The notes under the pieces: generated by a model
What the model was told of the DNA's origin: nothing
What the model saw: only the letters and a program-made list of their open reading frames with translations
Databases searched by the model: none
Part shown: piece by piece, positions 703-43,242 of the stretch
How the letters are laid out: each line of letters begins with the position of its first letter
How positions within the stretch are numbered: the stretch's first letter is position 1
Position numbers and translations under genes: made by a program
NCBI GenBank assembly: GCA_965278945.1
Contig: OZ257128.1
Span: 600,075-664,074 of the forward strand
Direction of reading: 5' to 3'
From: Actinomycetes bacterium
GTDB taxonomy: Bacteria > Actinomycetota > Actinomycetes > S36-B12
DNA: 64,000 bases

Positions 703-738
703 CGAACACGGGCTGCGCGGAAGGCTAAAGTCAGCCGG

Positions 739-2013: not shown

Positions 2014-2014
2014 C

Positions 2015-7220: not shown

Positions 7221-7329
7221 GCCACCTCCACATAAGTGCACGTTGCCGTGCAGCGTCAGAGTAGTCCATGAGCACAGGCCCGCGAGTTCACGAAGATCCC
7301 GCGACACGGTGGTCTGTCAGACTGTCGGC

Positions 7330-9072: not shown

Positions 9073-9127
9073 CCATGGACAGTGGCTCGCTCGGGGAGCC
9101 GGCCGGATGTTGTCGGCTAGCATCGGG

Positions 9128-10153
9128 ATGCATTCGCGTCAACGACCGGGAGCTCAGGTGCGCAGGTTTCGCGTCGCGGTAGCGGCCACAGCAGGGCTCG
9201 GCCTCGTTGCCGGCCTGCTCGCGATCGCCCCGTCGGCCTCGGCTGAGACGTATCCGCCTTCGCCCACGCCGACCGCCACCACGACTCCCACGGTCACGCC
9301 GACGCCGACGCCGAGCCCGTCAGTGACGCCGACTCCCTCGCCGACCCAGACGATCCTTCCGTCACCGCCGCCCCCTGGTGGGGCGATCGTCACGGTCGCC
9401 GGCAACGAGGTCGACGTCACCGTCACGGTGAACCGATTGGAGGGAACGGTCGAGGTCAGCGGCGGAGATCTCGACATCATCGTGGACCCGAAGGCACCCG
9501 ACGGCAGCAACCTGCCCATCGATGCAAACGGAACGCCGATCGTGAACTCCGGCGGCGACATCTTGTCGAACGGCCGCGGGTTCGCCTCGGGAACGCCGGT
9601 GAACTTCTACCTGATCCGCGACGGCGAAGCGATCTTCATCGGAACGCTCGATGTGCAAAGCGACGGAACATTCGCTGGCGCGGTGCCGATCCCGCAGGGC
9701 CTGGCACCGGGCAACTACACGCTCCAGGTCAACGGCCTGACGGAGTCGACCAGGTTCCGCGCGCTGGTCGTGCGCGTCATCTCCATCAACATCCTGGTCA
9801 AGGTAACGCCGCCGAAACGTCAGTCGGAGCTGAAGGCCGTCCGCACGATCGTCTACTTCGACGTCTTCTCGGCGAAGCTGCTGCCGTCGGCCAAGCGCCA
9901 GCTCGACACACTCGTCCAGCGGCTGCCGCGCAAGAAGTCGAACCTCGTGCGCGTCGTGGGCTTCGTCGGACCGGGCGGATCCGCCTTCCACGTCAAGGCG
10001 CTGTCCGCCGCTCGCGCTGCTTCCGTCGCCCGCTACCTGCGGACCAAGGGCGTGCGCGGCACGTACCGGCTGGAGATCGGCGGCAACGCGAAGATCAACG
10101 CGCCGTCGGCCAGACGAGCCAGCGTGCTCGTCGTGCCGAACAAGGGGAGATGA
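9128..10153 (+). CDS. Secreted Pro/Thr-rich surface protein with C-terminal OmpA-like peptidoglycan-binding domain
   Basis: Signal peptide ending ASA, PT-rich linker, VYFDVFSAKL..VRVVGF..LSAARAASVARYL; start may be GTG 9158. Confidence 0.7.
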   Translation: MHSRQRPGAQVRRFRVAVAATAGLGLVAGLLAIAPSASAETYPPSPTPTATTTPTVTPTPTPSPSVTPTPSPTQTILPSPPPPGGAIVTVAGNEVDVTVTVNRLEGTVEVSGGDLDIIVDPKAPDGSNLPIDANGTPIVNSGGDILSNGRGFASGTPVNFYLIRDGEAIFIGTLDVQSDGTFAGAVPIPQGLAPGNYTLQVNGLTESTRFRALVVRVISINILVKVTPPKRQSELKAVRTIVYFDVFSAKLLPSAKRQLDTLVQRLPRKKSNLVRVVGFVGPGGSAFHVKALSAARAASVARYLRTKGVRGTYRLEIGGNAKINAPSARRASVLVVPNKGR

Positions 10154-10165
10154 CGGTCCCCGACC

Positions 10166-11215
10166 GTGCTCAGCCCCTCGCTGGTCGGCGACATCGCCCA
10201 CGACTCGCTCACCCTTGACGACCTTTCCGGCGACGATGCGCGAGCACTGATCAGGCACGACCTGGCCTTCGCGGTCTGCAAAGCGATCGATGCGAACGGA
10301 GCATCGCTTCCCGAGGAGACCGACTCGCTCCTGCGCACGGCTGCCCGCCAGCAGTCCATGCGTAGCATCTCGGTCGCCGCGACCGCGACGAGCGTCGCGC
10401 AGCTCCTGACCAGTGCTGGCGTGCGCAGCATCGTCTACAAGGGTCCAGCCCTCGCGGTGCAGACGACCGGATCGTTCGTCGGGCGGGGAAGCGCGGACAT
10501 CGACGTGCTCATCGATTCGCGCGACACGACCACCACCGATCGTGCACTGCGTGCCGCTGACTGCGTCAGCCGCGCGGGTTACACCGGAGCCCCGTCGCGC
10601 TGGGAGAAGTACCACCGCCCCGAGCGCGCCTACTCCGGCCTTCCGGTGACGATCGACCTGCATTGGCGCGTCGACTCCAGCCCCGGCTACTTCAAGGGCA
10701 ACTTCGCACGGCAGTGGCTGCGCGGTGAGCGTCTTGATGTCGACGGGCTTCAGGTCATGACCTTCGAACGTCTGGACGCGCTGCTGGCCACCGCCGCGCA
10801 CGGCGCGAAGGAACGGTGGTGGAGGTGGTTCTGGGCTCTCGATGCCGTGCGTCAGGTCGAGCAGCTCGACGAGGCGCTGTGGCCGGAGGCCCGGTCTCGA
10901 TCGGTCGAGACCGGAACGTCGAAGGCGCTCGACCTGTGTCTTGCCGTCGCTGCCGAGTGCGGAGCGCGCATGCCTGCCGGTGTCGAGGCGTCCGCGGGGA
11001 TGCGCGATGTCGCGCGCGCGTGGTTCGAGCAGTCATCAGGAGCAACCTCAGTTGAGTGGAGCAACAGCGCGGCCCTGTCGCGGCGCAAGGCGCGCTGGAT
11101 CATCGCCGACTCGCGCATTGCGGCGGTCGACGGATTCCTGCGAGCAGCGGCACGACTGGTCGCGGACCGTCGCGCGCCCGGCGCTCCGCAACGAAAGCGA
11201 CCCGACGGTGGCTAG
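10166..11215 (+). CDS. Nucleotidyltransferase family protein of the type found in lasso clusters
   Basis: IVYKGPALA, GRGSADIDVLI, IDLHWR, AHGAKE.W..WALD motifs. Confidence 0.8.
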   Translation: MLSPSLVGDIAHDSLTLDDLSGDDARALIRHDLAFAVCKAIDANGASLPEETDSLLRTAARQQSMRSISVAATATSVAQLLTSAGVRSIVYKGPALAVQTTGSFVGRGSADIDVLIDSRDTTTTDRALRAADCVSRAGYTGAPSRWEKYHRPERAYSGLPVTIDLHWRVDSSPGYFKGNFARQWLRGERLDVDGLQVMTFERLDALLATAAHGAKERWWRWFWALDAVRQVEQLDEALWPEARSRSVETGTSKALDLCLAVAAECGARMPAGVEASAGMRDVARAWFEQSSGATSVEWSNSAALSRRKARWIIADSRIAAVDGFLRAAARLVADRRAPGAPQRKRPDGG

Positions 11216-11224
11216 GGTGCGTCC

Positions 11225-12151
11225 ATGACGGTGCTGGTAACCGGGGGCGCCGGCTTCATCGGGAGCAACCTCGTGCGTGCGCTGTCCGCGCGTGGTGACG
11301 AGGTGCGCGTCCTCGATGACCTGTCCACCGGGCTCGTCTCGAATCTCGCTGGCATCGACGTCGCTGCGGCCGAGGGATCGATCACGGACCCCGCAGCCGT
11401 TCAGATGGCGATGGACGGAGTGACGTCGGTCGTGCACCTCGCCGCCCGCGGTTCCGTGCCGCGGTCCGTCGCCGATCCGATCGGCAACCACTCGGCAAAC
11501 GACACGGGCACCCTCAACGTGCTCGAGGCAGCCCGCGCCGTCGGGGCGCATGTGGTCTTCTCGTCGTCCTCGTCGGTCTATGGCGTGAACACCGAGCTGC
11601 CCAAGCGCGAGGAGATGTGGACCCAGCCGATGTCTCCTTACGGCGCCAGCAAGCTGGCCGCCGAGTCGTACCTCATGGCGTACCGGGATGTGTATGGCCT
11701 GAGCGCGCTCGCGCTGCGCTTCTTCAACGTCTACGGGCCGTGGCAGCGACCCGACCATGACTACGCGGCGGCCATCCCGCGGTTCGCCGGGGCCGCACTG
11801 AACGATCAGCAGATCTCGGTGCACGGAGACGGGGAGCAGACGCGCGACTTCACGCATGTCGATGCCGTCGTGCGCGTGCTCATCGACGCGGTCGATCGGC
11901 GGGTCTCCTGGGACCGGCCGGTGAACCTCGCCTTCGGTGACCGCATCAGCATCAACGACGTCGTCACCGAACTGTCCCGCCAGCTCGACCGACCGCTGGA
12001 CGTCGTCCACACCGATGCGCGCGCTGGCGACGTGCGGCACAGTCAGAACGATCCCTCGCTGCTGAAGCGCGTGTTCCCGACTGCCGAGCCGGTCGGCTTC
12101 GCCGACGGGATCGCCTCGACCCTCGGCTGGCTGGTCTCCACGCGTGCCTGA
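11225..12151 (+). CDS. NAD-dependent sugar epimerase (UDP-Glc/GlcNAc 4-epimerase-like)
   Basis: TGGAGFIGSN, SSSSVYG, YGASK, RFFNVYGP, GDGEQTRDF. Confidence 0.9.
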   Translation: MTVLVTGGAGFIGSNLVRALSARGDEVRVLDDLSTGLVSNLAGIDVAAAEGSITDPAAVQMAMDGVTSVVHLAARGSVPRSVADPIGNHSANDTGTLNVLEAARAVGAHVVFSSSSSVYGVNTELPKREEMWTQPMSPYGASKLAAESYLMAYRDVYGLSALALRFFNVYGPWQRPDHDYAAAIPRFAGAALNDQQISVHGDGEQTRDFTHVDAVVRVLIDAVDRRVSWDRPVNLAFGDRISINDVVTELSRQLDRPLDVVHTDARAGDVRHSQNDPSLLKRVFPTAEPVGFADGIASTLGWLVSTRA

Positions 12152-12431
12152 GCTCGCGGGCTCCGCAGTGCCGCGTCGCGCCGATCGCGTGGTGCAGGCG
12201 GCGGTCGACGGCGAACTCGTGCTGATGAGCCCGAAGGACTTCGCCTACTTCGGCACCGCGGGCTCGGGCGATCCGGTGTGGGAGCTCATCGACGGGTCGC
12301 GGTCGGTCGACCAGATCGTCGCCGACCTGGAGTCGCGCTTCGCTGCAGAGCCCGGGGTGATCCGCACGCAGACGCTGGCCTTCCTCGATGCCCTCCAGGC
12401 CGCCGGCCTCGTCACGGTCTCCACCGCCTGA
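12144..12431 (+). CDS. PqqD-family RiPP recognition element (lasso B1 protein)
   Basis: 95 aa; VDGELVLM..YF...VWELIDG.RSVDQIV..L...F....FLDAL...GLV pattern. Confidence 0.85.
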   Translation: MPELAGSAVPRRADRVVQAAVDGELVLMSPKDFAYFGTAGSGDPVWELIDGSRSVDQIVADLESRFAAEPGVIRTQTLAFLDALQAAGLVTVSTA

Positions 12432-12493: not shown

Positions 12494-13771
12494 GGCAGGT
12501 TCAATCGGTGAGTGCAACGCCTGAGTGGTGGAGGCGTTGTGGCTGGTTCGGATCGGTATTACTCGTGGGAGCGGCGTAGGCCGTTCTTCGACGCGATTGC
12601 CCATGGTGCGTCGTTTCTGGAGGCGGTCGCGGTGGTGGGCGCGGCGGGGTCGGCGTGCCAGAAGTGGTGGCGGCAGTCTTCGGGCATGCAATTGACGTTG
12701 GGGGTGCGCGGGGGCTTGAGGATTGTTCCTGGCGGGGATGGGTTTGTCGGGGACAAGTTGACGGCGCTGGAGCGCGATCAGATCGGCACGGGTCTGGCGG
12801 CGGGCTTGTCGCAGGCGGCGATCGCGCGTGTGATCGGGCGTAGCGCGTCGACGGTGTCGCGGGAGGTCCGCCGTAATGCCGGGCCGGATGGGACGTATTA
12901 CGGGTCGCTGGCGCACGTGAAGGCGTTCCAGCGGGCTCGCCGGCCCAAGGGTTTCAAGCTGGATGGGCGCGCGGATCTGATCGCGGCCATCACCGGCTGG
13001 CTCGATGATGGGTGGAGTCCGCGGCTGATCGCCCTCGTGCTGGCCGAGCAGGGCGGCGGGGACAAGACTGCACGGGTGTCGCACGAGACGATCTACCAGT
13101 CCCTTTACGTGCAGGCGCGCGGGCATCTGCGCGCGGACCTGCATCGGGCCTTGTCCACGGGCCGTGCCCGGCGCCGATCACGGACCGCGACCCGACGTGG
13201 TCCCAGTCCGTTCTCCGATGCCCTGACGATCTCCCAGCGACCCTCCGAGGTCGATGACCGCGCCGTGCCAGGTCATTGGGAGGGCGACTTGATCCTGGGC
13301 ACCGGATGCGCCTCGGCGATCGGGACCCTGGTCGAGCGGTCGACCAGGTTCACGATCCTGCTGCACCTGCCGATCGATCACACCGCGGAGGAAGTCGCCA
13401 AGGCGATGATCACAGCGATGGGCGACCTGCCCGAGCACCTGCGCCGCTCGATCACCTGGGACCGCGGAAGCGAGCTGGCCCGCTGGCGCGACATCCAGAT
13501 CGCCCTGGACACGCAGTTGTTCTTCTGCGACCCGCACTCACCCTGGCAGCGTGGCAGCAACGAGAACACCAACCGGCTGCTACGGCACTGGTTCACCAAG
13601 GGCACCGACCTGTCCGTCCACGACGTCACCGAGCTACGCCGCGTGCAGGACAAACTCAACTCCAGACCACGCCCTACCCTTGGACTGAAGACCCCCGCCC
13701 AAGCACTCGCGGAATACCTCGAGCAGCAGGCGGCCTAGACAACCGCGTTGCACTCACCGATTGACATCGCC
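12494..13771 (+). mobile_element. IS30-family insertion sequence (type 1)
   Basis: Perfect 20-bp inverted repeats at 12501-12520 and 13745-13764, extendable imperfectly to 12494/13771; flanking GCG direct repeat at 12491-93 and 13772-74. Confidence 0.9.
12512..13738 (+). CDS. IS30-family transposase
   Basis: HTH STVSREVRRN, VSHETIYQ, GHWEGDLI, TWDRGSE, PWQRGSNENTN; true start may be slightly downstream. Confidence 0.95.
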   Translation: MQRLSGGGVVAGSDRYYSWERRRPFFDAIAHGASFLEAVAVVGAAGSACQKWWRQSSGMQLTLGVRGGLRIVPGGDGFVGDKLTALERDQIGTGLAAGLSQAAIARVIGRSASTVSREVRRNAGPDGTYYGSLAHVKAFQRARRPKGFKLDGRADLIAAITGWLDDGWSPRLIALVLAEQGGGDKTARVSHETIYQSLYVQARGHLRADLHRALSTGRARRRSRTATRRGPSPFSDALTISQRPSEVDDRAVPGHWEGDLILGTGCASAIGTLVERSTRFTILLHLPIDHTAEEVAKAMITAMGDLPEHLRRSITWDRGSELARWRDIQIALDTQLFFCDPHSPWQRGSNENTNRLLRHWFTKGTDLSVHDVTELRRVQDKLNSRPRPTLGLKTPAQALAEYLEQQAA

Positions 13772-13784
13772 GCGCGATCGGCGA

Positions 13785-13803
13785 CGACAACTCACCACTC
13801 AAC
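13785..13803. repeat. REP-like hairpin family A, right arm
   Basis: cgacaactcaccactcaac pairs with 12462-12480. Confidence 0.85.
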
Positions 13804-13812
13804 AAGGACGGG

Positions 13813-15489
13813 CTAGCGGAGGGTGACCACGTGGTCCGCCGCGGCGATCGTCGAGCGTCGGTGCGCTACCACGAGGACGGTCACCGCTGGGGTGAGCGAT
13901 CTGATGAGCGCGAGCACCTCGGCCTCGGTCGCATCGTCGAGAGCTGACGTCGGCTCGTCCAGCACGAGCAGGACAGGCCGTCGCAGCAGCGCTCGAGCAA
14001 GGGCCACGCGTTGGCGCTCGCCACCGGACAGGCGAAGGCCCCGATCGCCGAGGGGGGTGTCGAGTCCGTCGGGCAGAGTGCGCGCGAACGACGCGGACGC
14101 CTGGTCGAGTGCGCTCCATAACTCGTCATCGCTGCAGTCGCGCTGGACGGACCACGCCAGGTTGTCGCGCAGCGAGCCCGGGATCAGCACGCTCTCCTGC
14201 GGAACATAGGCGATATGCGCGCGCCACCATGCGAGATCCGCGTCGGGCAGTTCGGCTCCGTCGATGAGGATGCATCCGCTCGTCGGCACGAGGAGCCCCA
14301 GAACCAGGTCGACAGTCGTCGACTTGCCCGCCCCGGATGGTCCGACCAGGGCGGTGATCGCGCCGCGCGGGACGGTGAAGCTCTGGGCCTGCACTCCGCT
14401 TTCGGTGCCGGGGTAGGTGAAGGACACGTCGACGAACTCGGCGAGCGTCGATCCTGTCGACAGTGTCGAACGGCTCGACTCGGCACCCGCAGGGACCTCG
14501 ACCTCGCGACGTGCCTCGTCGGTGAGCGTGGTGAGGTCGCGGACGGCCGGCAGTGAGTTGGCCATGAGCGCAGACGCGCTGACCATCTGCCTAACGCTGA
14601 TGGCCAGGCGGAAGACCAGCAGCAGGACGACGACGATGGTCGCGGGCGGAACGTCGAGCGCGACGGCCACGAGCACGAGTACCGATGCGGCTATCGCCGT
14701 GCCAACCGACGTCAGCCCGGACACGAGCGACTGGCGGCGCACGTTCGACACCTGCACCTCGCGCGTGCCCGCGAATGCGTCCGCGAGCCGGTCGGTCCAT
14801 ACGACGGAAGCCGAATGCGCGCGAACCAGCCGAAGGGAGTCGAGGGAGTCGGTGATGACGGACTGCATGGTGCGCTGGCGCTCGCCCAGCTCGACGCCGA
14901 GCCGGTGGGCCGGGCGAACGGACAACGACTGAGCCGCGGCCATGAGGATCACTCCGAGGATCGCGATCAACGCGACGACGGGGGACACGAACAGCGCGAT
15001 GATCGCGGTAACCAGTGCGAGCACGCCGCTGACGCAGAACTGCAGCAGCTGGTTGTAGGCCATGCCCGCGCGAACGGCGCCGAGGCTGATCACGGCGATG
15101 ATGTCGCTGCGTCGCCTGCTGAGCAGGAAGGTCCACCGCGCTGCGAGCACGGCGGCGAATGCCTCGTGACGCAGTTGATCGACGAGCACCTGCTGCACGC
15201 GGGTGGTCGTCACCGACGACACCTGGGCGATCGCTGCCTGCACGACGATGACGAGGACGAAGGCGGCGAGGAGCGCCCACAGGGGAACCGAGCTCAGCTC
15301 GAAGTCGCCGAACAGCGGCACCGTCAACGTGGCCGTGCTATCGGCTATGGAGTTCACGATTGGTATGAGAAGCAGCAGGCTTGCGCCGCCGAGCACCGCG
15401 GTCGCAAGAAGCGCGAGGATCTGGATGACGACCCGACGAGGCGACAGCCGCCACGCCTGCGCAGCGAGAAGGCGCATGTCGCCGATCAC
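13813..15489 (-). CDS. ABC exporter, fused permease/ATPase (candidate lasso D)
   Basis: TM domain plus GPSGAGKST, LSGGERQR, LLVLDE; GTG 15489 overlaps upstream stop. Confidence 0.9.
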   Translation of the reverse strand: MIGDMRLLAAQAWRLSPRRVVIQILALLATAVLGGASLLLLIPIVNSIADSTATLTVPLFGDFELSSVPLWALLAAFVLVIVVQAAIAQVSSVTTTRVQQVLVDQLRHEAFAAVLAARWTFLLSRRRSDIIAVISLGAVRAGMAYNQLLQFCVSGVLALVTAIIALFVSPVVALIAILGVILMAAAQSLSVRPAHRLGVELGERQRTMQSVITDSLDSLRLVRAHSASVVWTDRLADAFAGTREVQVSNVRRQSLVSGLTSVGTAIAASVLVLVAVALDVPPATIVVVLLLVFRLAISVRQMVSASALMANSLPAVRDLTTLTDEARREVEVPAGAESSRSTLSTGSTLAEFVDVSFTYPGTESGVQAQSFTVPRGAITALVGPSGAGKSTTVDLVLGLLVPTSGCILIDGAELPDADLAWWRAHIAYVPQESVLIPGSLRDNLAWSVQRDCSDDELWSALDQASASFARTLPDGLDTPLGDRGLRLSGGERQRVALARALLRRPVLLVLDEPTSALDDATEAEVLALIRSLTPAVTVLVVAHRRSTIAAADHVVTLR

Positions 15490-17171
15490 GAGTCGGCCTC
15501 GATCGCGTCGAGCACGGCATCGAGCGTCCACGCGTCTCGCGGTCGCTCGACGAGAGTGATCGGCACGATGTCCGCGAGCTGGGCCACCTGCGCAAAGTAG
15601 CGCTCCTGGCCGAGCACGATCGGCGCGATGCCATCGCGCGTGGTGTGGGCCAGGAGTGCAGCCATCCGCTCTGCTCCGAAAATACGGCGGACCGTCACCA
15701 CCTGCTCGTCCGTCGACGTGAGGACGACGATGCCGTCGATGCGCCGCGGCTCGGCGGACGGAGCCTCGGCGCGGAATGCGACCTTCACGCGTCCGCGGCC
15801 CAGCGGAGCCAGCGAGTCGAAGTCGACGCCCACCGCTGCGGCAGCGTCCTCAAGGAGGTGGACGTTCCTCGAGTACGGAGTCGTCCATGCGCCGCCATCG
15901 CGGAACTCGACGAGAGTCACGTCATCGCACAGCAGGGCGTGGCCCCGCGATCGCAAACCCATTGCCGTTGTTGACTTTCCCGCGCCGCGGGCGCCTGCGA
16001 CGGCAACGACCCGATTGCCCACAAGAACCGTCGACGCGTGCAGGCTGAGCATTCCGCGCTGCAGCATCGCGAGGGTGACTGCCCAGCCCTGCACCATCCA
16101 GCCGACGTCGTCTGCCCCGGAGACGCCGCGGTCGACAACCACGTCAGTGCCATTCTCGACGAGCAGTCCCGCGCGACCGCGGAAGCGCAGGAGCGCGGCC
16201 GTGGGGGTGACCTCGATCCACGGCCGCGGCTGCTCGGCGCCCGGCAGCGAGACGGGAAGTCGGCCCTCGCGCACGCTGATACCCAGGCTCGGTGGCAGCC
16301 AGCGCCAGTCGCTCGCGTCGATCGTCACGGAGGGGGAGTAGCCCAGTCGCGCCATGAGCTCGGCGTGCTCGTCCTCGATCATCGCCGCCTGGTCGTCGGT
16401 GAGCTCGTCGCGCCATCCGCCCTCGATACCCCGACGGAAGAACTGCTCGGTATTCGGATGCGTGCCGCGGAACCCGCGGTCCGCCTCGGACTCCTGCAGG
16501 CGGTCGAACCTGGCCTGCTCGACCGCGACCGCGAGCTCCTCCTGCGAGCACTCGATGCCAATGGCGGTGAACACCGGATGCAGGGTCGCGACCGCATCGG
16601 ACACGAGGTCCTCGAAGCGCACGACATGCACGGGGAAGGGCACGTCCTCGCCGAGCCAGCTGCAGGCATGGCTGCTCCATGTTCCCCACGGCTGCGCGGT
16701 CTGCGATCTCGCCGCGTTCGCGACCTGCTCGCCACCGTTCGTGCCCATCGCGTCGATCGCCTCGTCGATCGTCGTGCCGAAGAAGGCCGCGGCCGAGCAC
16801 GCCACGTCGCGTGGATCGCGCACGACGAGGATTGCGGCCCGCGTCGCGTCTGCGGGGAATGGGGCACTCCCGCTACTGCCGGTTCTGTAGATCTCGTGCG
16901 TCTTGCGCAGGAGCGGCGCGCCGGTCTCGTCCGACTGTGCGAATCGTCGCGTCAGCGCGCTGCGCACTCCATCGTTCTCGTCATCGGTCAGCCATCGCGT
17001 GTCCAGGCCGTAGGCACCCAGTGCGGCCCCGACGTGGTGCGGCTGCGACCCCGACGACAGGTGGTCGACGCCGAACAGCTCCGGATGCGTGCCGAGCGCG
17101 GTGACGATCGCGCGAACCCAGGTGTTGCCGGACTTCGGATAGGACGCCAGCCACACCGTACGGGCGCTCAC
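15486..17171 (-). CDS. Fusion of PAPS-dependent sulfotransferase and HPr-kinase-like domain
   Basis: N-half WLASYPKSGNTW (5'-PSB) and VVRDPRDVACS (3'-PB); C-half LHAS..VAGARGAGKSTT..LLCDDV. Confidence 0.82.
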   Translation of the reverse strand: MSARTVWLASYPKSGNTWVRAIVTALGTHPELFGVDHLSSGSQPHHVGAALGAYGLDTRWLTDDENDGVRSALTRRFAQSDETGAPLLRKTHEIYRTGSSGSAPFPADATRAAILVVRDPRDVACSAAAFFGTTIDEAIDAMGTNGGEQVANAARSQTAQPWGTWSSHACSWLGEDVPFPVHVVRFEDLVSDAVATLHPVFTAIGIECSQEELAVAVEQARFDRLQESEADRGFRGTHPNTEQFFRRGIEGGWRDELTDDQAAMIEDEHAELMARLGYSPSVTIDASDWRWLPPSLGISVREGRLPVSLPGAEQPRPWIEVTPTAALLRFRGRAGLLVENGTDVVVDRGVSGADDVGWMVQGWAVTLAMLQRGMLSLHASTVLVGNRVVAVAGARGAGKSTTAMGLRSRGHALLCDDVTLVEFRDGGAWTTPYSRNVHLLEDAAAAVGVDFDSLAPLGRGRVKVAFRAEAPSAEPRRIDGIVVLTSTDEQVVTVRRIFGAERMAALLAHTTRDGIAPIVLGQERYFAQVAQLADIVPITLVERPRDAWTLDAVLDAIEADS

Positions 17172-17923
17172 GATGCCCACCACTCGAGCAACTGGCCGAC
17201 GGACGCGTCGTGCTCGGCGCCGATGCGTAGGACTGCCGACGGCAGGTCGGCCAGCCGTAGGTGCTCGCTGACCGCGGGCTCGTCGGACTCCGCGACCGGT
17301 GCGAGCGCGCCTCCCAGCATGAGGCTCGCGGCGCGCTCGAACTTGCGGTGGCCGGTCAGCTCGGTGAACGCGTCCTCGCTCGGCCGACGTCGCGTGACCT
17401 GCACCACGCGCGAGACGGTCGCCGGCACGACCGAACGCGGCAGGTCGACGCTGACCACGTTGGACTGGTCGCGAATCGCGGCCCCGTCGAATCCGGCGGC
17501 GACGGCTCGCTGCTTGGCGATCAGCAGCGGCGCGGACCTGGGGTGAGCGATCAGCCGGCTGTCGACCCAGCGCGTGGGCGTCGGCCGGTCGCTCAGGAGC
17601 AGCCAGCCATGACGGGACAAGGCGATAACGACAGTCGCGACCTCGGGAGCATCACCGCAGACGAGTAGGGCATGGTCTGCAGAGTCGGCAGGAACGACGG
17701 CGGCTCCCAGCGCCATCGAGTAGCCGCGACGGGCATGGGACAGCAGGTCGCCCCATCCGTGGTGGAGGGCGCGAGCCTTCTGCCCGAGCGGATCAGGCCC
17801 TTCGGCCTCGGTGAACACGTCGCCGTTTGCGCCAATGGCGACTGACCCGAGTCCTGCACACGTTCCGCGCCAGACCGGACCGGTGCGGTCAAGCACGACG
17901 GCCGGTGGATCCTGCGAGTTCAC
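17168..17923 (-). CDS. HPr-kinase-like paralog with degenerate P-loop
   Basis: Parallels the kinase half of the downstream gene (A.LVCG....LSRHGW.LLSD..T), but GDAPEVATV replaces Walker A. Confidence 0.5.
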   Translation of the reverse strand: MNSQDPPAVVLDRTGPVWRGTCAGLGSVAIGANGDVFTEAEGPDPLGQKARALHHGWGDLLSHARRGYSMALGAAVVPADSADHALLVCGDAPEVATVVIALSRHGWLLLSDRPTPTRWVDSRLIAHPRSAPLLIAKQRAVAAGFDGAAIRDQSNVVSVDLPRSVVPATVSRVVQVTRRRPSEDAFTELTGHRKFERAASLMLGGALAPVAESDEPAVSEHLRLADLPSAVLRIGAEHDASVGQLLEWWAS

Positions 17924-18022
17924 GTGGCTAGGTTCCCATGTCCGCGTCAAGCCGCGGGTGGGATGGCCGCGCTGAGTAATGTCCAACGCAGTTCCGGTCG
18001 AGTCAGTTTCCAGGAGACGTCA

Positions 18023-18757
18023 GTGACGACTGCCCCGCACGAGCGCACTCCGAGGCTCTGGCCGCTCGTGGTCGCGCTTGTCGCGGTCGTGCTGCTGGCC
18101 GGGGTGTTCTTCGCGTCCGAGGCCGCAACCGACCGCCCCGCATCGCCGCCTCTTGGCCCGACAGCATGCGTCACGACGGAGGACCCGCCGATAGGCGGCA
18201 CCGCGACGCAGGTCACGGAAAACGGGGTCGTTTACAACCTCTACACCTTCACCGGCAATGGCGTCCTGACCCCGACGAACTCCGTCACCTATCACTACGA
18301 ACTGATTGACGGATCCGGCGAGTTCGCCGGCACAGCGCAGGCCACCGCGGGAGTCGAGATCGCCGCGGACACGGTCCGGATTCGCTGGCCGAGGTTCTGC
18401 CAGAACATCTCGCAACCTACGGCGCCGTCGCTGACCGGCTCGACGTTCTCCTGGGCGCCCCCAGCGTTCGTCCCGAGCGGGCAGAGCATCGCCTCGTACA
18501 CCGTCATCTACAAGGAGACGGCCGACGACGGCGCCGGCCACGTCTATGCCATCAGCTCCAGTGGTCAGCCGAGGAGCATCAATCTCGACGGGACCACGAC
18601 GGAGCAATGCACGACGCAGAACCTGGCGGGCTGGACGTGCGATCTGGGCATTGACTTAGTGAGCGGGCGGACGTACGAGTTCCGCGTCTTCGCGAGGCCC
18701 TCGTCAGGAGTTCCGGCCGGCCAGCTGACCCCGGCGTTCGCTGTGCTCGCGCCATAG
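18023..18757 (+). CDS. Secreted protein, short paralog of the glycine-rich/FN3-like proteins
   Basis: Signal/TM segment, YTFTGNGVLTP, C-terminal SW..P..YTV.Y..WTC..L.SG.TYEFRVFA; AGGAG before GTG 18023. Confidence 0.65.
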   Translation: MTTAPHERTPRLWPLVVALVAVVLLAGVFFASEAATDRPASPPLGPTACVTTEDPPIGGTATQVTENGVVYNLYTFTGNGVLTPTNSVTYHYELIDGSGEFAGTAQATAGVEIAADTVRIRWPRFCQNISQPTAPSLTGSTFSWAPPAFVPSGQSIASYTVIYKETADDGAGHVYAISSSGQPRSINLDGTTTEQCTTQNLAGWTCDLGIDLVSGRTYEFRVFARPSSGVPAGQLTPAFAVLAP

Positions 18758-18782
18758 CGAATATCGCTGTAATGTCGCACTT

Positions 18783-20081
18783 GTGTCGCAGAAATGTCGC
18801 AGGACCGTCGCATTCGTGCTCGCGGGTGCCACCGCGCTGGCCGCGACCCTCGTGATGTATCCCGCGGGACCCGCGGCAGCGGCGGGTCCTGTGGTGTGCA
18901 CATCCACTGGTGGCTCGACCGTTGCGTCCACGATCGGCGGCATCAAGTACAACGTGGTTACTTTCACCGGCTCCGGCACATTCACCCCGGGCCAGGCCAC
19001 AAGGGCCGACTACCTGGTGGTCGGCGGTGGTGGTGGTGGCGGCGGATCCATTCGCCGAGTCGCGGGCGGCGGCGGTGGCGGGGGCGAGGTGCTGACCGGG
19101 TCGGTCTCCATTCCCGCGAGCGCCCAGACAATCACGATCGGAACCGGTGGGACCGCAGGAACGACATCGACGACCCGTGGCGGAACCGGCGTCGCGTCGA
19201 GCATCGCCGCGCTCGTTGTCGCGCAGGGCGGCACCGGCGGCGGAGCGGGAGTCACGAACCTGACGGGAGTTGCCGCGACGTCCGGCGCATCAGCGGGAGG
19301 CGGGGGAGGAGCGGCCAGTGGCACGGTCACTGGCGGTACCGCGACCGCGCCGGGATTCGCCGGAGGCAACGGAATAACGAGTGGTACCACCACGAATCCG
19401 TCGGGTGGTGGTGGCGGCGGGCAGGGAGCGATCGGTTCCAACGCGACGCTCGCCAACGGAGGTGCCGGTGGCGCCGGGCTGGGAAGCTCCATCACTGGAT
19501 CGCCCGTGACCTACTCGGGCGGTGGTGGCGGCGGCGGGAACGCGACCGGCGGAGCGGGGGCGAACGGCGGCGGCGCGGGCGGAACGTCCGCGGCTCAGAC
19601 GGGAGGCACCGGCACGGGGAACACCGGCAGTGGCGGCGGCGGAGCGGGCAACGGGACGGTGAACTCGAACCAGAGCGGGGGCGCTGGGGGCAGCGGGAAG
19701 ATCATCATTCGCTACCCGAAGTACTGCCTAAACGCATCGCCCCCGACCTCGGTGAGTTTCACCAGTCCGACAATGTCATGGGCGGCACCCGTGTACCTGC
19801 CCTCGGGCGCAACGGTGGCGGCGTACACGGTCACGTACCGGGTGTCGACGGACTCCACGGCCGGCAACATCTACGCCGTGAGCACCAGCGGCTCGGCGCT
19901 GTCGATCAACGTCACGGGCGTTGCCCAGGGAACATGCAATTCGAACAACCCGTCAGGTTGGACCTGCAATGCGGGAATCACCTTGACCTCGGGTAAGACC
20001 TACGAGTTCCGGGTCTTCGCGAAGTCGTCAACGGGAACGTTCGGGCAGATGGCCGCTGCGATCACCTACTCGGTTCCCTAA
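18783..20081 (+). CDS. Secreted glycine-rich-domain protein with C-terminal FN3-like domain
   Basis: Signal peptide, TFTGSGTFTP..YLVVGGGGGGG, GGSGKIIIRY, shared C-terminal domain. Confidence 0.75.
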   Translation: MSQKCRRTVAFVLAGATALAATLVMYPAGPAAAAGPVVCTSTGGSTVASTIGGIKYNVVTFTGSGTFTPGQATRADYLVVGGGGGGGGSIRRVAGGGGGGGEVLTGSVSIPASAQTITIGTGGTAGTTSTTRGGTGVASSIAALVVAQGGTGGGAGVTNLTGVAATSGASAGGGGGAASGTVTGGTATAPGFAGGNGITSGTTTNPSGGGGGGQGAIGSNATLANGGAGGAGLGSSITGSPVTYSGGGGGGGNATGGAGANGGGAGGTSAAQTGGTGTGNTGSGGGGAGNGTVNSNQSGGAGGSGKIIIRYPKYCLNASPPTSVSFTSPTMSWAAPVYLPSGATVAAYTVTYRVSTDSTAGNIYAVSTSGSALSINVTGVAQGTCNSNNPSGWTCNAGITLTSGKTYEFRVFAKSSTGTFGQMAAAITYSVP

Positions 20082-20267
20082 TCCGGACAATCTACGCACG
20101 CGCCGCCCGACAGGGCTGCCAAAGTCCCGAGTCGGCCGATAATTAGCCATAGAAAGCCCTCCGCCGTGGCAGTTGCAGGGAATGCGCGCTGATATCCTTC
20201 GATTGAGGCGAGTGTTATCCAGGATAATCCTGTCTAGCTCGCGACGGTGGCACCCGGGAGGACGAGC

Positions 20268-21587
20268 ATGACGGGTCGACGCACGACGACGCGTTTAGTC
20301 GCGCTCGCCGGCACGTCTGCCGCCGCGCTCGCGATGCTCGTCGCCGTGCCGGCATATGCCGCAGCGCCTGGCTCGCCCGCCTGCAACGCAACGGGCGGCA
20401 ATCTGATCACGAGCACCAGTGCGGAAAATGTCGCGGGCAACTTCGTCCACACGTTCACCGCGAGCGGGACCTTCACGCCCAAGCAGGCGATGACCATCAC
20501 CTACCTGATCGTCGCCGGTGGCGGTGGTGGTGGCGGAGCAGCAGCGAGCACGGCCGGTGGTGGTGGAGGCGCCGGAGAGATGATCACCGCATCTGTGGCC
20601 GTCACCGCGAATACCGCGTACACGATCACCGTGGGCGGTGGCGGCGCGGGAGGCGCATCGACGACGAGCCGCGGAACCGTCGGGAGCGTGAGCAGCATCG
20701 GCTCCCCGATCTCCGTCACCGCGCAGGGCGGCGGCGGCGGGTCTGCCGGAGTGACGAACTTTGCAGGCGTGAACGTGACGACCGGAGAATCCGCCGGAGG
20801 TGCCGGCGGAAACGCGGCCAATGGCACTCCCGCCGGAGGCACCGCGGTCGCGCCAGGCGGTAACGGCGGCAACGGGCGCGGTTCGACGACGACGTCGCGC
20901 CCGGCCGGTGGCGGCGGTGGCGGCGACGGTGCAGCTGGGGCGGCTAGTCCGTCCAATGGCGTCGGCGGCGCGGGCGGCGCGGGCACCGCGAGCTCGATCA
21001 CTGGCACCTCACTTACCTACGCCGCTGGTGGTGGTGGCGGCGGTCGCACCACGGGCGGCGCTGGCGTAAGTGGCGTCAGTGGCGCCGGAGGACTGGCGAT
21101 CGCAGGAACTGCTGCTCCCGGAAACCGTGGTGGCGGTGGAGGAGGAGCCGGAAACGGCACGAGCGGGACCAAGGCGGGAGGCAATGGCGGATCGGGAGTC
21201 GTCATCATCTCCTACGCCAAGAACGCTGGGTGCTTCTCTGCGCCCCAGTCACCGTCGTTCTCCAACCCCACCTTCAGTTGGACCGCTCCGGCGACCACGC
21301 CCACGGGCCAGACGGTGTCGTCATACACGGTGATGTACAAGAGGTCCACGGACACGACCTACGGCAACATCTATGCGCGGCGAGTCGCCGGACAGACGGC
21401 GACAAGCTTGAATATCACTGGCGTTGACAACGCTGCCTGTGCGACCAACAACAGTGCCTTGATCTGGACGTGCGTCTCGGTCCAACTCGTCAGCGGTCAG
21501 ACTTACGACTTCAAGGTATTCGCGAGGGGAAGCGCGACGAGTTCCTTTGGAAGGCTTTCGACCGCAGTTCAGTACACGGTTCCGTAA
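20268..21587 (+). CDS. Secreted glycine-rich-domain protein with C-terminal FN3-like domain (paralog)
   Basis: TFTASGTFTP..YLIVAGGGGGG, GGSGVVIISY; GGAGGA before ATG 20268. Confidence 0.75.
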   Translation: MTGRRTTTRLVALAGTSAAALAMLVAVPAYAAAPGSPACNATGGNLITSTSAENVAGNFVHTFTASGTFTPKQAMTITYLIVAGGGGGGGAAASTAGGGGGAGEMITASVAVTANTAYTITVGGGGAGGASTTSRGTVGSVSSIGSPISVTAQGGGGGSAGVTNFAGVNVTTGESAGGAGGNAANGTPAGGTAVAPGGNGGNGRGSTTTSRPAGGGGGGDGAAGAASPSNGVGGAGGAGTASSITGTSLTYAAGGGGGGRTTGGAGVSGVSGAGGLAIAGTAAPGNRGGGGGGAGNGTSGTKAGGNGGSGVVIISYAKNAGCFSAPQSPSFSNPTFSWTAPATTPTGQTVSSYTVMYKRSTDTTYGNIYARRVAGQTATSLNITGVDNAACATNNSALIWTCVSVQLVSGQTYDFKVFARGSATSSFGRLSTAVQYTVP

Positions 21588-21616
21588 TGATCGAGGACAT
21601 GGAAGGAGGCGAGCAC

Positions 21617-21751
21617 GTGGACAGTCAACTCCAGACGTGGGTGACCCCGCGCCTGGTTCCGCTTGCTGCCTCTGGCGACTCGAAAAACAATCTCTCCGGC
21701 ACTGGTGACATCGACCAGACCTACAGCGGGTTCCCGTACGGCTATAGCTGA
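21617..21751 (+). CDS. Lasso peptide precursor (44 aa: MDSQLQTWVTPRLVPLAASGDSKNNLSGTGDIDQTYSGFPYGYS)
   Basis: GGAAGGAGG RBS at 21601-09, WxxPxL leader motif, two Asp candidates in core, C-terminal Ser, stop 4 nt before the cyclase start; alternative ATG 21587 gives 54 aa. Confidence 0.8.
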   Translation: MDSQLQTWVTPRLVPLAASGDSKNNLSGTGDIDQTYSGFPYGYS

Positions 21752-21755: not shown

Positions 21756-23339
21756 ATGCACGGACTAACCGCGCGACTGGGTCCGTCTGGCTTCGTGGTC
21801 GACACGCCTGCGGCCGATGCCCCGACGATTGCCACGGAAGTCCTTGCTCCCGACGGCACCATGGCGGGCGCGGTCTACGGCTCGGTCTCGCAGCGGGAGG
21901 CCGACGCACTCGTCATGCGCCTGTCGCTCGGGGGTGACCCGGGAGGACCGGACGTGCCTTGGATCGCGGTCGCGCGATTCGGGTCTGACGGGCTCGCGGG
22001 CGCGGCTTCCATGATGATGCCGAGCGGTCTGTTCTGGTCCGTGGCTAACGACGAGCTGGTCGTCTCGTCGGACCCGGTGTCGGCGACGACAGATCACACC
22101 CTCGACCCCCAATACGTCCGTGACTATGTCGCGGGCAAGACGCGTCCGGTCACCGCTGCGTTCGTTGGCGTACGTCGTGCGACCGCCGGGTCGACTGTGA
22201 CCTGGGCGACGCCGACGTCGCCGGTCGGCTCGCACGTGTGGTGCGGTCCCAGTGTGTGGTCGCAGCCGAGCCTTGACGGCCTGGCGGCCATGACGACCTA
22301 TCTCGAGGTGTTCGACGCGGTCATCGCGGATCTTGCTCGACGATCGCGTCCGCTCGTGACCACCGTGTCGGGCGGTCTCGACTCGACTTTCGTCGCCGCC
22401 AGCCTTGTCAGGGGCTCAGACGGTCCGGTACGCGGCCTCACGTACGCGCCCGTTCCTGGTGCGATGGTCGACGCCGATGCTGACGAGTCCGCTCTCGCCA
22501 TGCTCATGGCGGACGAGTACCCGGGCCGACTGACGGTCGAGCGAGTCGGAAACGCAGGAATGGTCAGGCCGCTGGCGGCCGCGGCAGAGATCTCGCGCCG
22601 CGCGGGAGTTCCGACGTTCACGCCGGCGAACCAGCCCTGGTTGTCGCGGATGCGCGAGATCGCTGCGAGTGGCGGTTCATCGATGTGGTTCGTCGGTTCG
22701 AACGGCAACGCCGCGTTCAGCTATCACCATCCCTACGCGGCCGACTACTACCTTCGTCGGGCGCGAATCCACGGTCTCGCGGAGCTGGCCCGTGATGGCG
22801 GACTGCGCACCCGGGTGCTCGGTCCGTTGAGGCGAAAGTATCTGGGCGGGCCGACGGACTCGTCGGCAGCAATGGACCGAGCCACGTACCTGCGTTGGCT
22901 GGCCCGTTCGGTCACGGGACTGCCTGCTGCCGGCAACCCCGCGGCGATGCAGGGCGTGCTGATGGCAGACCCCTTTGCTTCGCGGGCGGTCATCGAGGTC
23001 GCGGCGGCCATCACCCCGGCCGAGTGGGCCCGCGGGGGAGTTGCCCGAGGGTTTGCGAGGAGAGCGAGCATTGGACGGGTCCCCGACGCGATCCGGCTAC
23101 GAAGCGGACGGGGCCTCCAGGGCAGGGATGCGTGGTTCGTCATCCGCAACGACAAGGACGACTACCTGGACCGGATCTCCACCCTGCCGGGCCTTGCGGG
23201 TCTCGAGGAAGTCGACCACAAGGAAATGCACGCGCAGGTTGCCGCGTGGCCGTGGGGCCAGACGCAGGGACCGCCCTGGTTGGATCAGATCGCCGTGGAC
23301 CGAGTTCTCGGCGTGGCCGAGTTTGTAAGCATTTGGTAG
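21756..23339 (+). CDS. Asparagine-synthetase-like lasso cyclase (C protein)
   Basis: VSGGLDST PP-loop, G.NGN, DPFASRAVIE, ARRA..GRVPDAIRLR.GRGLQ; no N-terminal catalytic Cys of the glutaminase domain. Confidence 0.85.
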   Translation: MHGLTARLGPSGFVVDTPAADAPTIATEVLAPDGTMAGAVYGSVSQREADALVMRLSLGGDPGGPDVPWIAVARFGSDGLAGAASMMMPSGLFWSVANDELVVSSDPVSATTDHTLDPQYVRDYVAGKTRPVTAAFVGVRRATAGSTVTWATPTSPVGSHVWCGPSVWSQPSLDGLAAMTTYLEVFDAVIADLARRSRPLVTTVSGGLDSTFVAASLVRGSDGPVRGLTYAPVPGAMVDADADESALAMLMADEYPGRLTVERVGNAGMVRPLAAAAEISRRAGVPTFTPANQPWLSRMREIAASGGSSMWFVGSNGNAAFSYHHPYAADYYLRRARIHGLAELARDGGLRTRVLGPLRRKYLGGPTDSSAAMDRATYLRWLARSVTGLPAAGNPAAMQGVLMADPFASRAVIEVAAAITPAEWARGGVARGFARRASIGRVPDAIRLRSGRGLQGRDAWFVIRNDKDDYLDRISTLPGLAGLEEVDHKEMHAQVAAWPWGQTQGPPWLDQIAVDRVLGVAEFVSIW

Positions 23340-23367: not shown

Positions 23368-24378
23368 GTGAGAGGCAATCGAGTTCGCGCGCGTCGTGCC
23401 CTCGTCATCGCTAGTATCTCGGGCCTCGGGCTCGGTGCCGCGCTGATCTCTCCTACGCCGGCCCACGCGGCCGACGCCTCGATAGGGGTCAGTCTCTACA
23501 GCGTCGGCGGAGCACAGATCCAGTTCAGCATCTGCCTCAACGAGGGTGACGCTCTGCCCGCTCGCGTGAACGGGACGTACACGGTGACGGGTGGTGCCGG
23601 CACTGTCGGCCCGGTCGATTGGTCCGACGCCGATCCGACTTCGATTCTCATCGGCACAGAACCCTGCCCGAGTTCGCTCGTGACGATCGCGGTGGACGAC
23701 CTCCTTCCGTCGACGAGCTACACGATCAACGTCCACGTCAACCTCGTTCCCAAGACCGAGGACGACGACGACAATTTCGTTGACGACACGTCGCGCTCGA
23801 CAGTGTCGCTTGATGCATCGCTCGTAGCGTCGACCACGGACGGGACCTCACCTGACAATGGGCCTGGCGCCGGGGAGTCGGGCGGCGAGACAGGTACGAC
23901 CGACGGGTCTACGGATGCGGGCACTGGGGGTACCTCACCTGGAAATGCCGGCACATCGACCGGTGGTGCCGTCACACCCGTCGTCATCAGCAATCCCGCT
24001 GCGTTCACGTCCTCCCAGTTCTCGGCGCTGACGCCAGCACAAGTGGCGACCATTGCGCCGTCGGCCTTCGGTCAGTTGCCTCCGGCCACGTTCAAGGCGA
24101 TGACCGCGACCCAGGCCGCCGCAATCACGGTCGAGCAGGCATCGAGCATTCGCGCAGCACGTGCCGCAGAACTCCGGCCGTCGGCAGTTGCCGCACTGAC
24201 ACCTAACGCCATCGCTGCGATGCGTCCGTCCGCGATCAAGTTCCTGACGCCGGCGGCCGTAGGAGCCATGACCACCGCCCAGCTACGCGCGCTCACCCCG
24301 CGCCAGATCGCCGCGCTGCGTCCGCTTCAGATCGCCGAGCTCACGGCCGCCGAGAAGGCCTTGCTCCGGGTCAGATGA
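23368..24378 (+). CDS. Secreted protein with C-terminal octapeptide repeats
   Basis: Signal peptide ending AHA, beta-rich domain, G/T linker, about 14-15 eight-residue units (LTPAQVAT..LTPRQIAA). Confidence 0.7.
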   Translation: MRGNRVRARRALVIASISGLGLGAALISPTPAHAADASIGVSLYSVGGAQIQFSICLNEGDALPARVNGTYTVTGGAGTVGPVDWSDADPTSILIGTEPCPSSLVTIAVDDLLPSTSYTINVHVNLVPKTEDDDDNFVDDTSRSTVSLDASLVASTTDGTSPDNGPGAGESGGETGTTDGSTDAGTGGTSPGNAGTSTGGAVTPVVISNPAAFTSSQFSALTPAQVATIAPSAFGQLPPATFKAMTATQAAAITVEQASSIRAARAAELRPSAVAALTPNAIAAMRPSAIKFLTPAAVGAMTTAQLRALTPRQIAALRPLQIAELTAAEKALLRVR

Positions 24379-24905
24379 GCATGCCGAGCGAGCATCCCGC
24401 GCAGAGCGCCGCATCGCGGCGTTGGCGGGGTCGCGCCCGCGTCGCGCAGGCGATGGCGCTCATGACCGTCACCGGTGCTGCGCAGAAGATCGTTCCGATG
24501 ACCCGCTGGTCCCGCGTGATCGGCGAGCACTCCGGCGTGCCGACCGCATGGGAGGCGAAGCCCGATCGTCCCGTGCCGTTGCGCAGCGCAGACCTCGACG
24601 AGGAGCGCGTGCGTCGCGCGATTCAACGTGCCGCCGATCGCCTGCCCTGGACGCCGAGCTGCCTGGCGGAGGCGGCGGCGGGCCAGATCATGCTGCGCCG
24701 TCGCGGCAAGCCCGGCGTCGTCGTCATCGGCCTGCGTCCGGCCGCCGGTGAGTGGGATGCGCATGCCTGGCTGCTCGGCGCGCGTGGCGCGCTGACCGGC
24801 GGGCCCGCGGCCGAGGGCTTCACGCCGACGACGGTGTTCGAGGTACCGGACGGACTGAAGGCCTCGGACGTCGACCTGTCCGAGCCCACCCCGCACCACG
24901 CCTAG
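24375..24905 (+). CDS. Lasso B2 leader peptidase (transglutaminase-like)
   Basis: WTPSCLAEA (Cys), VVIGL, AHAWL (His); ATG overlaps upstream stop. Confidence 0.88.
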   Translation: MSMPSEHPAQSAASRRWRGRARVAQAMALMTVTGAAQKIVPMTRWSRVIGEHSGVPTAWEAKPDRPVPLRSADLDEERVRRAIQRAADRLPWTPSCLAEAAAGQIMLRRRGKPGVVVIGLRPAAGEWDAHAWLLGARGALTGGPAAEGFTPTTVFEVPDGLKASDVDLSEPTPHHA

Positions 24906-35908: not shown

Positions 35909-36013
35909 CTGTTCGCCTCCAGTCGGTCCGGTCTCAGCCCGAATATCGGCCCGATCCGTCGGCGGATGACCGTGCCGGGGCCGAAAGGGCGTTCGTGAGC
36001 CGAAACCCTCGGT

Positions 36014-37159: not shown

Positions 37160-37167
37160 GGGATCTC

Positions 37168-41285: not shown

Positions 41286-41310
41286 ACGCAGCACGCACCC
41301 ACAACCTCCA

Positions 41311-41343
41311 CGCGAGTGGGCAGTTGGTGTCGTGAAAACAACC
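41311..41343. repeat. REP-like hairpin family A, left arm (interrupted)
   Basis: 33 bp, exact reverse complement of 42605-42637. Confidence 0.9.
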
Positions 41344-42604: not shown

Positions 42605-42637
42605 GGTTGTTTTCACGACACCAACTGCCCACTCGCG
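42605..42637. repeat. REP-like hairpin family A, right arm
   Basis: ggttgttttcacgacaccaactgcccactcgcg. Confidence 0.9.
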
Positions 42638-43212: not shown

Positions 43213-43242
43213 CGACATGTGAATCCAATAGGACCCAAGAAG

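Follow-up and report, generated by a model that had tools for sequence, protein, structure and literature searches.

A sulfotransferase and HPr-kinase-like fusion gene in an actinobacterial lasso-peptide cluster: a candidate bifunctional tailoring enzyme

Results

A conserved fusion gene read in a single frame

We analyzed a 64,000-nucleotide (nt) stretch of DNA from an Actinomycetes bacterium (GenBank assembly GCA_965278945.1, contig OZ257128.1, positions 600,075 to 664,074), hereafter the window, in which one minus-strand gene joins a sulfotransferase to an HPr-kinase-like domain. The N-terminal half, a sulfotransferase of the type that uses 3'-phosphoadenosine-5'-phosphosulfate (PAPS), is called ST here, and the C-terminal HPr-kinase-like half is called K. 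Coordinates refer to the window, and L-numbers (L001, etc.) denote loci of relatives that were compared. The features of the fusion gene, all on the minus strand, are as follows (aa, amino acids; GC3, G+C content at third codon positions).

15486..17183, minus strand: ST-K fusion gene, 565 aa from GTG 17183 (Pfam and NCBIfam domains, GC3, full-length homologues)
16344..17159, minus strand: sulfotransferase domain, aa 9-280 (Pfam PF00685, invariant motif columns, AlphaFold and Foldseek)
17118-17141, minus strand: YPKSGNTW, aa 15-22, PAPS 5'-phosphosulfate loop with K17
16893-16907, minus strand: RKTHE with catalytic His96
16794-16823, minus strand: VRDPRDVACS, aa 121-130, 3'-phosphate motif RDPRD..S130, with R122
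aa 248-259 of the fusion, minus strand: FFRRGIEGGWRD
15489..16298, minus strand: HPr-kinase-like kinase domain, aa 296-565 (Pfam/NCBIfam matches, His382-Lys403-Asp420-Asp421 tetrad, P-loop)
In the K half, minus strand: LHAST with His382
15966-15995, minus strand: GARGAGKSTT, aa 397-406, P-loop with K403
15921-15935, minus strand: LLCDD, aa 417-421, with D420 and D421

The start of the gene is ambiguous, with possible GTG codons at 17183, 17180, and 17171. The last of these overlaps the stop codon of the upstream gene as GTGA, which makes a start at 17171 plausible. At the other end, the TGA stop (15488-15486) overlaps GTG 15489, the likely start of an ATP-binding cassette (ABC) exporter, again as GTGA. 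The upstream gene (a catalytically dead kinase, described below), the fusion, and the exporter are thus chained by GTGA overlaps.

A preliminary description of this DNA had reported a single open reading frame (ORF) carrying intact PAPS motifs (YPKSGNTW, RDPRD) followed by an intact kinase P-loop (GARGAGKST, DD), and had called for a check against a frameshift artefact. The observation was borne out. Pfam and NCBIfam domains fall on both halves, and in an alignment of 31 sequences reaching down to 50% identity all catalytic residues of ST and K are invariant. GC3 stays at 0.74-0.92 over the entire ORF in a single frame, junction included. A database search returned 281 relatives; nearly all of the top 120 span the entire protein (98-99% coverage, 47-94% identity). 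Exact look-ups of the window's own proteins gave no match. Full-length fused homologues come from four independent sources (JGI, ENA, NCBI, and Logan assemblies), and the fused ORF was also seen in L001-L003 and L081-L087. In L004, a metagenome-assembled genome (MAG), ST and K occupy two frames that overlap (9827-11783); an ST-K fusion was probably split there by a frameshift error or has recently become a pseudogene. Despite that locus, the chance that a sequencing or assembly frameshift or a pseudogene explains the fusion in the window is practically negligible, because more than 100 independent assemblies carry it at full length and the GC3 signal is continuous in one frame. By these sequence measures the fusion is real and both of its halves are under purifying selection.

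Both halves retain complete catalytic motifs

By its Pfam score, the ST half clearly belongs to PF00685 (Sulfotransfer_1, the cytosolic SULT type): aa 9-280 match at 83.2 bits against a cut-off of 22 (E value of 2.6e-23), while Sulfotransfer_3 stays below threshold (20.8 versus 27 bits). In addition to the motifs reported in the preliminary description, the half contains His96 (RKTHE), S130, and a C-terminal motif of the RxGxxGxW type, here FFRRGIEGGW257 (FFRRG..GGW); His382 of the K half had likewise gone unmentioned. The catalytic and PAPS-binding residues of ST are kept at frequencies of 0.86-0.98 in 87 orthologues of other phyla. In the AlphaFold model of the fusion, which has a predicted local distance difference test score (pLDDT) of 83.8, the ST half has a predicted SULT fold: Foldseek retrieves Teg12, StaL, and the SULT1/2 families at a probability of 1.0. 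The glycopeptide sulfotransferases Teg12, Teg14, and StaL and the cytosolic SULTs are also its best matches in the PDB by sequence and structure.

The K half is more divergent. Pfam Hpr_kinase_C matches only aa 380-427, at 24 bits against a cut-off of 33.3 (E value of 3e-5), and NCBIfam TIGR04352 (HprK_rel_A) matches aa 370-445 at 35.6 bits against an equivalog cut-off of 200. Judged by these scores, K is a divergent relative of the Hpr_kinase_C/HprK_rel_A families rather than a scored member. Its homologues carry precomputed matches to PF07475 and PF27840 (ScmC), mostly weak. K and a free-standing kinase of L082 (284 aa) share 49% identity over 277 aa. That locus (13558-19722) contains two cyclases, the 284-aa protein as a second, apparently active kinase, and two small peptides ending in Ser and Leu. 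Grouping by distance places the fused K domains with free-standing active kinases of Actinomycetota. Of the three nearest free-standing active relatives of the fused K, two are themselves located immediately upstream of the cyclase gene.

A conserved dead-kinase partner lies upstream of the fusion

The gene upstream of the fusion was missed in the preliminary description.

17168..17923, minus strand: dead HPr-kinase-fold paralogue "p272," 251 aa as called (hhalign, motif columns, AlphaFold and Foldseek)

No Pfam or NCBIfam model matched p272, and its 15 database relatives are all unnamed or hypothetical. Aligned with hhalign, it matches the K domain end to end over 241 columns (probability of 82%, E value of 1e-5). 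Its AlphaFold model (pLDDT 86; predicted template modeling score [pTM] 0.84) is closest by Foldseek to the HprK/P structures 2qmh, 3tqf, and 1kkm, followed by phosphoenolpyruvate carboxykinase. In the motif columns, His is replaced by Gly, the P-loop by G-DAPEVATV, and DD by DR. Calls of dead kinases here and below were made from such profile-aligned columns; a regular-expression test for the P-loop over-called them. By sequence and predicted structure, then, p272 is a paralogue with the HPr-kinase fold in which no catalytic residue is left. It forms a clade of its own in the distance grouping; together with the placement of the fused K, this would fit an origin from two kinase paralogues. The p272 stop overlaps the fusion start (GTGA), and at all ST-K fusions examined a p272 homologue comes immediately before the fusion, in most cases overlapping it by 4 nt; as judged from this arrangement, translation of the fusion is coupled to that of p272. 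The conserved dead kinase offers another lead: an enzyme fold may have been reused here as a partner or adaptor.

The fusion gene sits in a complete lasso-peptide cluster

The remaining genes assigned to the cluster are listed below.

10166..11215, plus strand: NTP_transf_5 nucleotidyltransferase, PsmN-like, "N" (Pfam PF14907, 1.4e-32)
11225..12151, plus strand: NAD-dependent sugar epimerase/dehydratase (E), between N and B1 (Pfam Epimerase, 4e-57)
12144..12431, plus strand: PqqD-type leader-binding protein, lasso B1 (Pfam PqqD, 1.5e-14; NCBIfam lasso_PqqD_Bac)
13813..15531, minus strand: ABC exporter, lasso D, likely GTG start at 15489 (Pfam ABC_tran and ABC_membrane)
21599..21751, plus strand: precursor peptide (A), 50 aa, MEGGEHVDSQLQTWVTPRLVPLAASGDSKNNLSGTGDIDQTYSGFPYGYS (translation; W-x-x-P-x-L leader motif, C-terminal Ser)
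21756..23339, plus strand: asparagine-synthase-like lasso cyclase (C), ATG 21756 after the precursor stop (Pfam Asn_synthase, 6.6e-16)
24375..24905, plus strand: transglutaminase-like leader peptidase, lasso B2 (Pfam Transglut_core3, 2.2e-17)

These genes are arranged in three operons: N-E-B1 on the plus strand, p272-fusion-exporter on the minus strand, and precursor-cyclase-ALTTAQ-repeat protein-B2 on the plus strand. The N-E-B1 order is kept in L001 and L087, and the window B2 is 55% identical to that of L083 by tblastn. On these domain assignments, the fusion gene is part of a complete lasso-peptide cluster comprising A, B1, B2, C, D, N, and E.

Several other features are interspersed with the cluster or flank it. 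Three secreted proteins (one with fn3, two with Gly_rich_2/PF21722) and the ALTTAQ-repeat protein are encoded among the lasso genes, at 17924-21587 and 23368-24378. Homologues of all four are interleaved in L001, and L087 has Gly_rich_2 and fn3 genes beside its fusion. An IS30-like element (12512-13738) lies between B1 and the exporter and breaks neither gene; L001 is without the element, with ~110 bp between the two genes. It is one of three IS30-like transposase genes in the window (12512-13738, 24992-26209, and 41380-42597), the latter two being frames of equal length (~405 aa) and equal codon-position GC. On one side, a polysaccharide-type locus occupies 424-10153 (UDP-sugar dehydrogenase, GT4, Bac_transf, epimerase, DegT aminotransferase, DUF4012, and an OmpA-domain protein). 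A type IV pilus locus occupies 34766-47713 (PilM, three T2SSE ATPases, T2SSF, prepilin peptidase, and N_methyl pilins). The valyl-tRNA synthetase encoded in the window groups its source with uncultured Actinomycetota, showing 91% identity to that of a 3.46-Mb "Actinomycetes bacterium" MAG and ~80% identity to those of Candidatus Nanopelagicales MAGs.

Sulfotransferase and kinase-fold genes are linked across many phyla

HPr-kinase homologues and sulfotransferases are known to occur as separate genes in lasso clusters (PMC8498205, PMC9266682, PMC4289311), in agreement with what the preliminary description had taken as established. We scanned one genome per species, which gave 80 loci, and then ran iterated profiles on 84 loci. 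A K-fold gene was found in 80 of the 84, B1 in 67, a cyclase in 59, B2 in 47, the nucleotidyltransferase in 36, and an ABC exporter in 33. Outside Actinomycetota, separate tblastn searches with the two halves usually hit two adjacent genes, K then ST; the typical order is K-ST-B1-B2 in Proteobacteria, Bacteroidota, Chloroflexota, Acidobacteriota, Cyanobacteria, and one archaeon. A K-fold gene lies immediately upstream of ST in 81 of 95 cases, and ST is fused to K in 8 of 95. Among those 81 upstream genes, the His-Lys-Asp-Asp (HKDD) tetrad is complete in 57 and altered in 24.

An exhaustive search of 1.84 billion representative proteins gave 565 matches at an E value of ≤1e-30. Architectures were taken from the best 150 of the 565, which include nine more ST-K fusions (tetrad intact in eight), 21 fusions in the opposite order, K-ST (tetrad degenerate in 12), and one cyclase-K fusion. 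In one 799-aa protein of the representative set (P0263), an Asn-synthase-like lasso cyclase (aa 1-494) is followed by an HPr-kinase-like domain (aa 527-798) with an intact HKDD tetrad.

Taking the gene orders together with the protein architectures, we read K-ST as a fixed adjacent pair in many phyla, in which K and ST have been fused repeatedly and in both orders. Judged by its tetrad, the kinase-fold unit ahead of ST is often non-catalytic, and one behind ST is normally catalytic. The ST-K fusion, by the same comparisons, is no one-off: an entire actinobacterial clade typically has it, and it represents one among several K/ST architectures.

ST has a further fusion partner. In L005 (8084-10091) and L006 (1448-3455), both freshwater actinobacterial MAGs, a dead HPr-kinase-fold gene is followed by a 409-aa ST-PqqD fusion. 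L005 resembles a cyanobactin cluster, with a PatG-like S8 protease (3738-5771), a ThcOx/nitroreductase-type oxidase (5768-8056), and a YcaO protein (10109-12394). No lasso cyclase was found within its 19.7 kb, and the ST-PqqD cluster of L005 and L006 is without lasso genes. Since ST is joined there to a leader-binding PqqD domain, its substrate is probably a peptide with a leader rather than a polysaccharide.

Candidate precursors share a C-terminal serine

The window precursor ends in ...YGYS, with Ser50 at the C terminus. Of 270 candidate peptides with a W-x-x-P-x-[LVIM] motif at the 84 loci, 75 end in Ser, against a background of 9%; most candidates not ending in Ser are plainly non-coding frames. 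The majority of loci have candidates with a W-x-x-P-x-L motif. The leader motif W-x-x-P-x-L and the C-terminal Ser of the window precursor are common to precursors in 48 loci. Tyr occurs in the last eight residues of 28 of the 75 Ser-ending candidates, and even within the fusion clade the precursors of L081 and L082 and one of those of L004 have no Tyr. The preliminary description had put forward the whole precursor tail, with three Tyr, several Ser/Thr, and the terminal Ser, as candidate substrate. The enrichment of Ser-ending candidates upholds the terminal Ser, whereas the three Tyr are not conserved and drop out as a shared target. Tyr sulfation as the general role of ST was rejected on these grounds, since many precursors, some of those of the fusion clade included, are without the residue.

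Identical or near-identical cores of the form NNLSGTGD(I/V)DQTYSGFPYGYS are encoded in the window (21599-21751), L001 (5402-5563), and L087 (2191-2349). The window core equals that of L001 exactly, and that of L087 is nearly identical even though the L087 ST-K is only 58% identical to the one in the window. Inspection by eye for the boundary between leader and core and for the ring-forming Asp or Glu gave no secure assignment, as the Thr usually found at -2 is missing.

Discussion

A predicted bifunctional tailoring enzyme

An apparently active sulfotransferase and an apparently active kinase are joined in one polypeptide inside a lasso cluster, so the fusion probably decorates the lasso peptide with both groups. 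We consider it reasonably probable that the fusion is a tailoring enzyme with two functions, phosphorylating and sulfating the lasso precursor, as the preliminary description had proposed. The intact motifs, the complete cluster, the adjacency and repeated fusion of K and ST, and the ST-PqqD fusions all argue for this role. A peptide substrate is also favored by the GTGA overlaps that link p272, the fusion, and the exporter, and by the structural similarity of ST to Teg12 and StaL, both of which sulfate peptide aglycones.

We infer the two activities and their order as follows. According to reviews, lasso kinases, which are HPr-kinase homologues, place phosphate on the C-terminal Ser while the precursor is still linear (PMC8498205, PMC9266682), and the His-Lys-Asp-Asp tetrad is reported as essential to them (PMC9266682). 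By analogy with these characterized enzymes, the K domain would use ATP to phosphorylate the side chain of Ser50. With PAPS drawn from general metabolism, the ST domain would O-sulfate a hydroxyl on the same linear, leader-bearing precursor. The fusion probably works in complex with the dead kinase p272, and probably also with B1, both helping to hold the substrate. Lasso formation by the B2 peptidase and the cyclase would follow, and the ABC transporter, translated together with the fusion, would export the product. The neighboring nucleotidyltransferase and epimerase may put a sugar on the phosphate.

Several points weigh against this proposal. Both activities are predictions from sequence and context, and no sulfated lasso peptide or lasso sulfotransferase was found in the searchable literature, so the product is without precedent there. 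Beyond the terminal Ser, the precursors conserve no hydroxyl residue that would mark the site of ST action or even the class of acceptor. The K half scores under both the Pfam and the NCBIfam cut-offs, and the fusion model has a pTM of 0.54, with uncertain inter-domain geometry. Pfam scans of ~50 ORFs in the window, which do not extend to the rest of the genome, found no adenosine-5'-phosphosulfate kinase or ATP sulfurylase domain, in keeping with the earlier remark that PAPS-synthesis genes are missing from the window. Finally, the cluster has a polysaccharide locus as its neighbor, at 0.4-10 kb.

Alternative substrates and divisions of labor

PsmN adds a hexose to the phospho-Ser of pseudomycoidin (PMC8498205, PMC9266682), and the window, L001, and L087 all have N, E, and B1 together in a single tight operon. 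Conceivably, therefore, K acts on the peptide, N and E place a hexose on the phospho-Ser, and ST sulfates that hexose, giving a Ser-O-phospho-hexose-sulfate. We regard this as unlikely. By the profile search, only 36 of the 84 ST-containing loci have N, whereas a K-fold partner is nearly universal; the ST-PqqD cluster of L005 and L006 has neither N nor an active kinase; and the closest structures to ST are aryl/alcohol and peptide-aglycone sulfotransferases, not carbohydrate sulfotransferases.

It is quite unlikely that both active sites act in turn on the same C-terminal Ser, with sulfate going onto the phosphate or polyphosphate put there by K to give a peptide phosphosulfate, or with the Ser hydroxyl sulfated while the kinase-fold partner presents the C terminus. 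The terminal Ser is the only residue conserved over very diverse precursors, a kinase-fold protein is joined to ST in nearly all cases, and the characterized lasso members of that fold recognize a C-terminal Ser. That the partner is often catalytically dead suggests a presenting over a catalytic role. However, we know of no SULT-family enzyme with a phosphate acceptor, and in L005 the ends of a cyanobactin-like peptide would be cut off, so that a terminal Ser would be no target there. We give a low probability to the view that the K-fold partner is a substrate-presenting adaptor and that ST and an active kinase share the C-terminal Ser, yielding a PAPS-like peptide phosphosulfate or sulfo-Ser. 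If true, it would make the kinase-fold protein and ST a portable O-sulfation module of several ribosomal-peptide classes, lasso and cyanobactin-like included.

ST might also have no bearing on the peptide, sulfating the neighboring polysaccharide product or a small molecule, with the fusion serving co-expression only. Genes for a sugar transferase, a glycosyltransferase, a UDP-sugar dehydrogenase, an aminotransferase, and DUF4012 lie at 0.4-9 kb, and the synteny of this polysaccharide locus is the same in L087. Across phyla, though, ST keeps K, B1, B2, and C as its neighbors rather than polysaccharide genes; ST-PqqD, K-ST, and ST-K fusions exist; and the fusion gene is translationally coupled to the lasso exporter. 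We consider a role of ST outside the peptide highly improbable. Polysaccharide sulfation in particular was judged unlikely from the conserved neighbors and the ST-PqqD fusions.

Just as improbable is that one half alone is catalytic and the other is a binding or scaffolding domain, as p272 appears to be. Degeneracy of this kind does occur in the family, in the 24 of 81 upstream K-fold genes and the 12 of 21 K-ST fusions with an incomplete tetrad. In the ST-K architecture, by contrast, the catalytic residues of both halves are invariant in the 31-sequence alignment and the HKDD tetrad is kept in eight of the nine further fusions.

Significance and comparison with known systems

Sulfotransferase genes in lasso clusters have been noticed since 2014-2016, and none has been characterized. 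The components described here and their co-occurrence were already known; what appears to be undescribed is the fusion, the dead kinase that accompanies it, and how widespread the K and ST module is. Repeated fusion of ST with a lasso kinase and with PqqD is strong genomic evidence that ST tailors a peptide, and the fusion gene offers a single-polypeptide test case for such tailoring of lasso peptides. The predicted product would unite phosphate, sulfate, and perhaps sugar on a lasso scaffold, which would widen lasso chemistry and provide enzymes for peptide engineering.

The ST half shares its fold and its PAPS-binding and catalytic residues with the glycopeptide sulfotransferases Teg12, Teg14, and StaL and with the cytosolic SULTs. 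Those enzymes are only 15-22% identical to it, consist of a single domain, and act on non-ribosomal aglycones or small molecules. PAPS-dependent tyrosine sulfation of a ribosomal peptide is carried out in Xanthomonas on RaxX by RaxST, which belongs to a TPST-like family. Sulfation of a ribosomal peptide from PAPS is what we predict for ST, too; unlike RaxST, it has its strong Pfam match in Sulfotransfer_1, and Tyr is not conserved in the candidate precursors here.

For the K half, the closest characterized parallels are PadeK, ThcoK, SyanK, and PsmK, which have in common with it the HPr-kinase fold, the P-loop, the HKDD tetrad, and a setting in lasso clusters with Ser-ending precursors. They act on the linear precursor, as we propose by analogy for K. 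They are free-standing proteins of ~300 aa, whereas K is fused behind ST, is paired with a dead paralogue, and is too distant in sequence from the Pfam and NCBIfam models to reach their cut-offs. Haft's "HPr-rel-A system" (TIGR04352 HprK_rel_A plus TIGR04353 PqqD_rel_X) provides the best NCBIfam match of K, and B1 weakly matches the paired PqqD model, yet both scores fall far under the equivalog cut-offs (35.6 versus 200 for the kinase, 17.4 versus 35 for PqqD).

At the level of the cluster, the pseudomycoidin pathway likewise combines a kinase (PsmK) with an NTP_transf_5 protein (PsmN) in one lasso cluster and further decorates the phospho-Ser. It has no sulfotransferase; the window cluster adds ST and an epimerase. 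Lasso clusters of Firmicutes and anaerobes have also been noted to contain sulfotransferase genes (Zhu et al. 2016, cited through PMC8498205; Letzel et al. 2014, PMC4289311). A PAPS-type sulfotransferase stands there, too, alongside an HPr-kinase homologue, PqqD, and a nucleotidyltransferase. There the genes are separate and uncharacterized, whereas here ST and K are one polypeptide.

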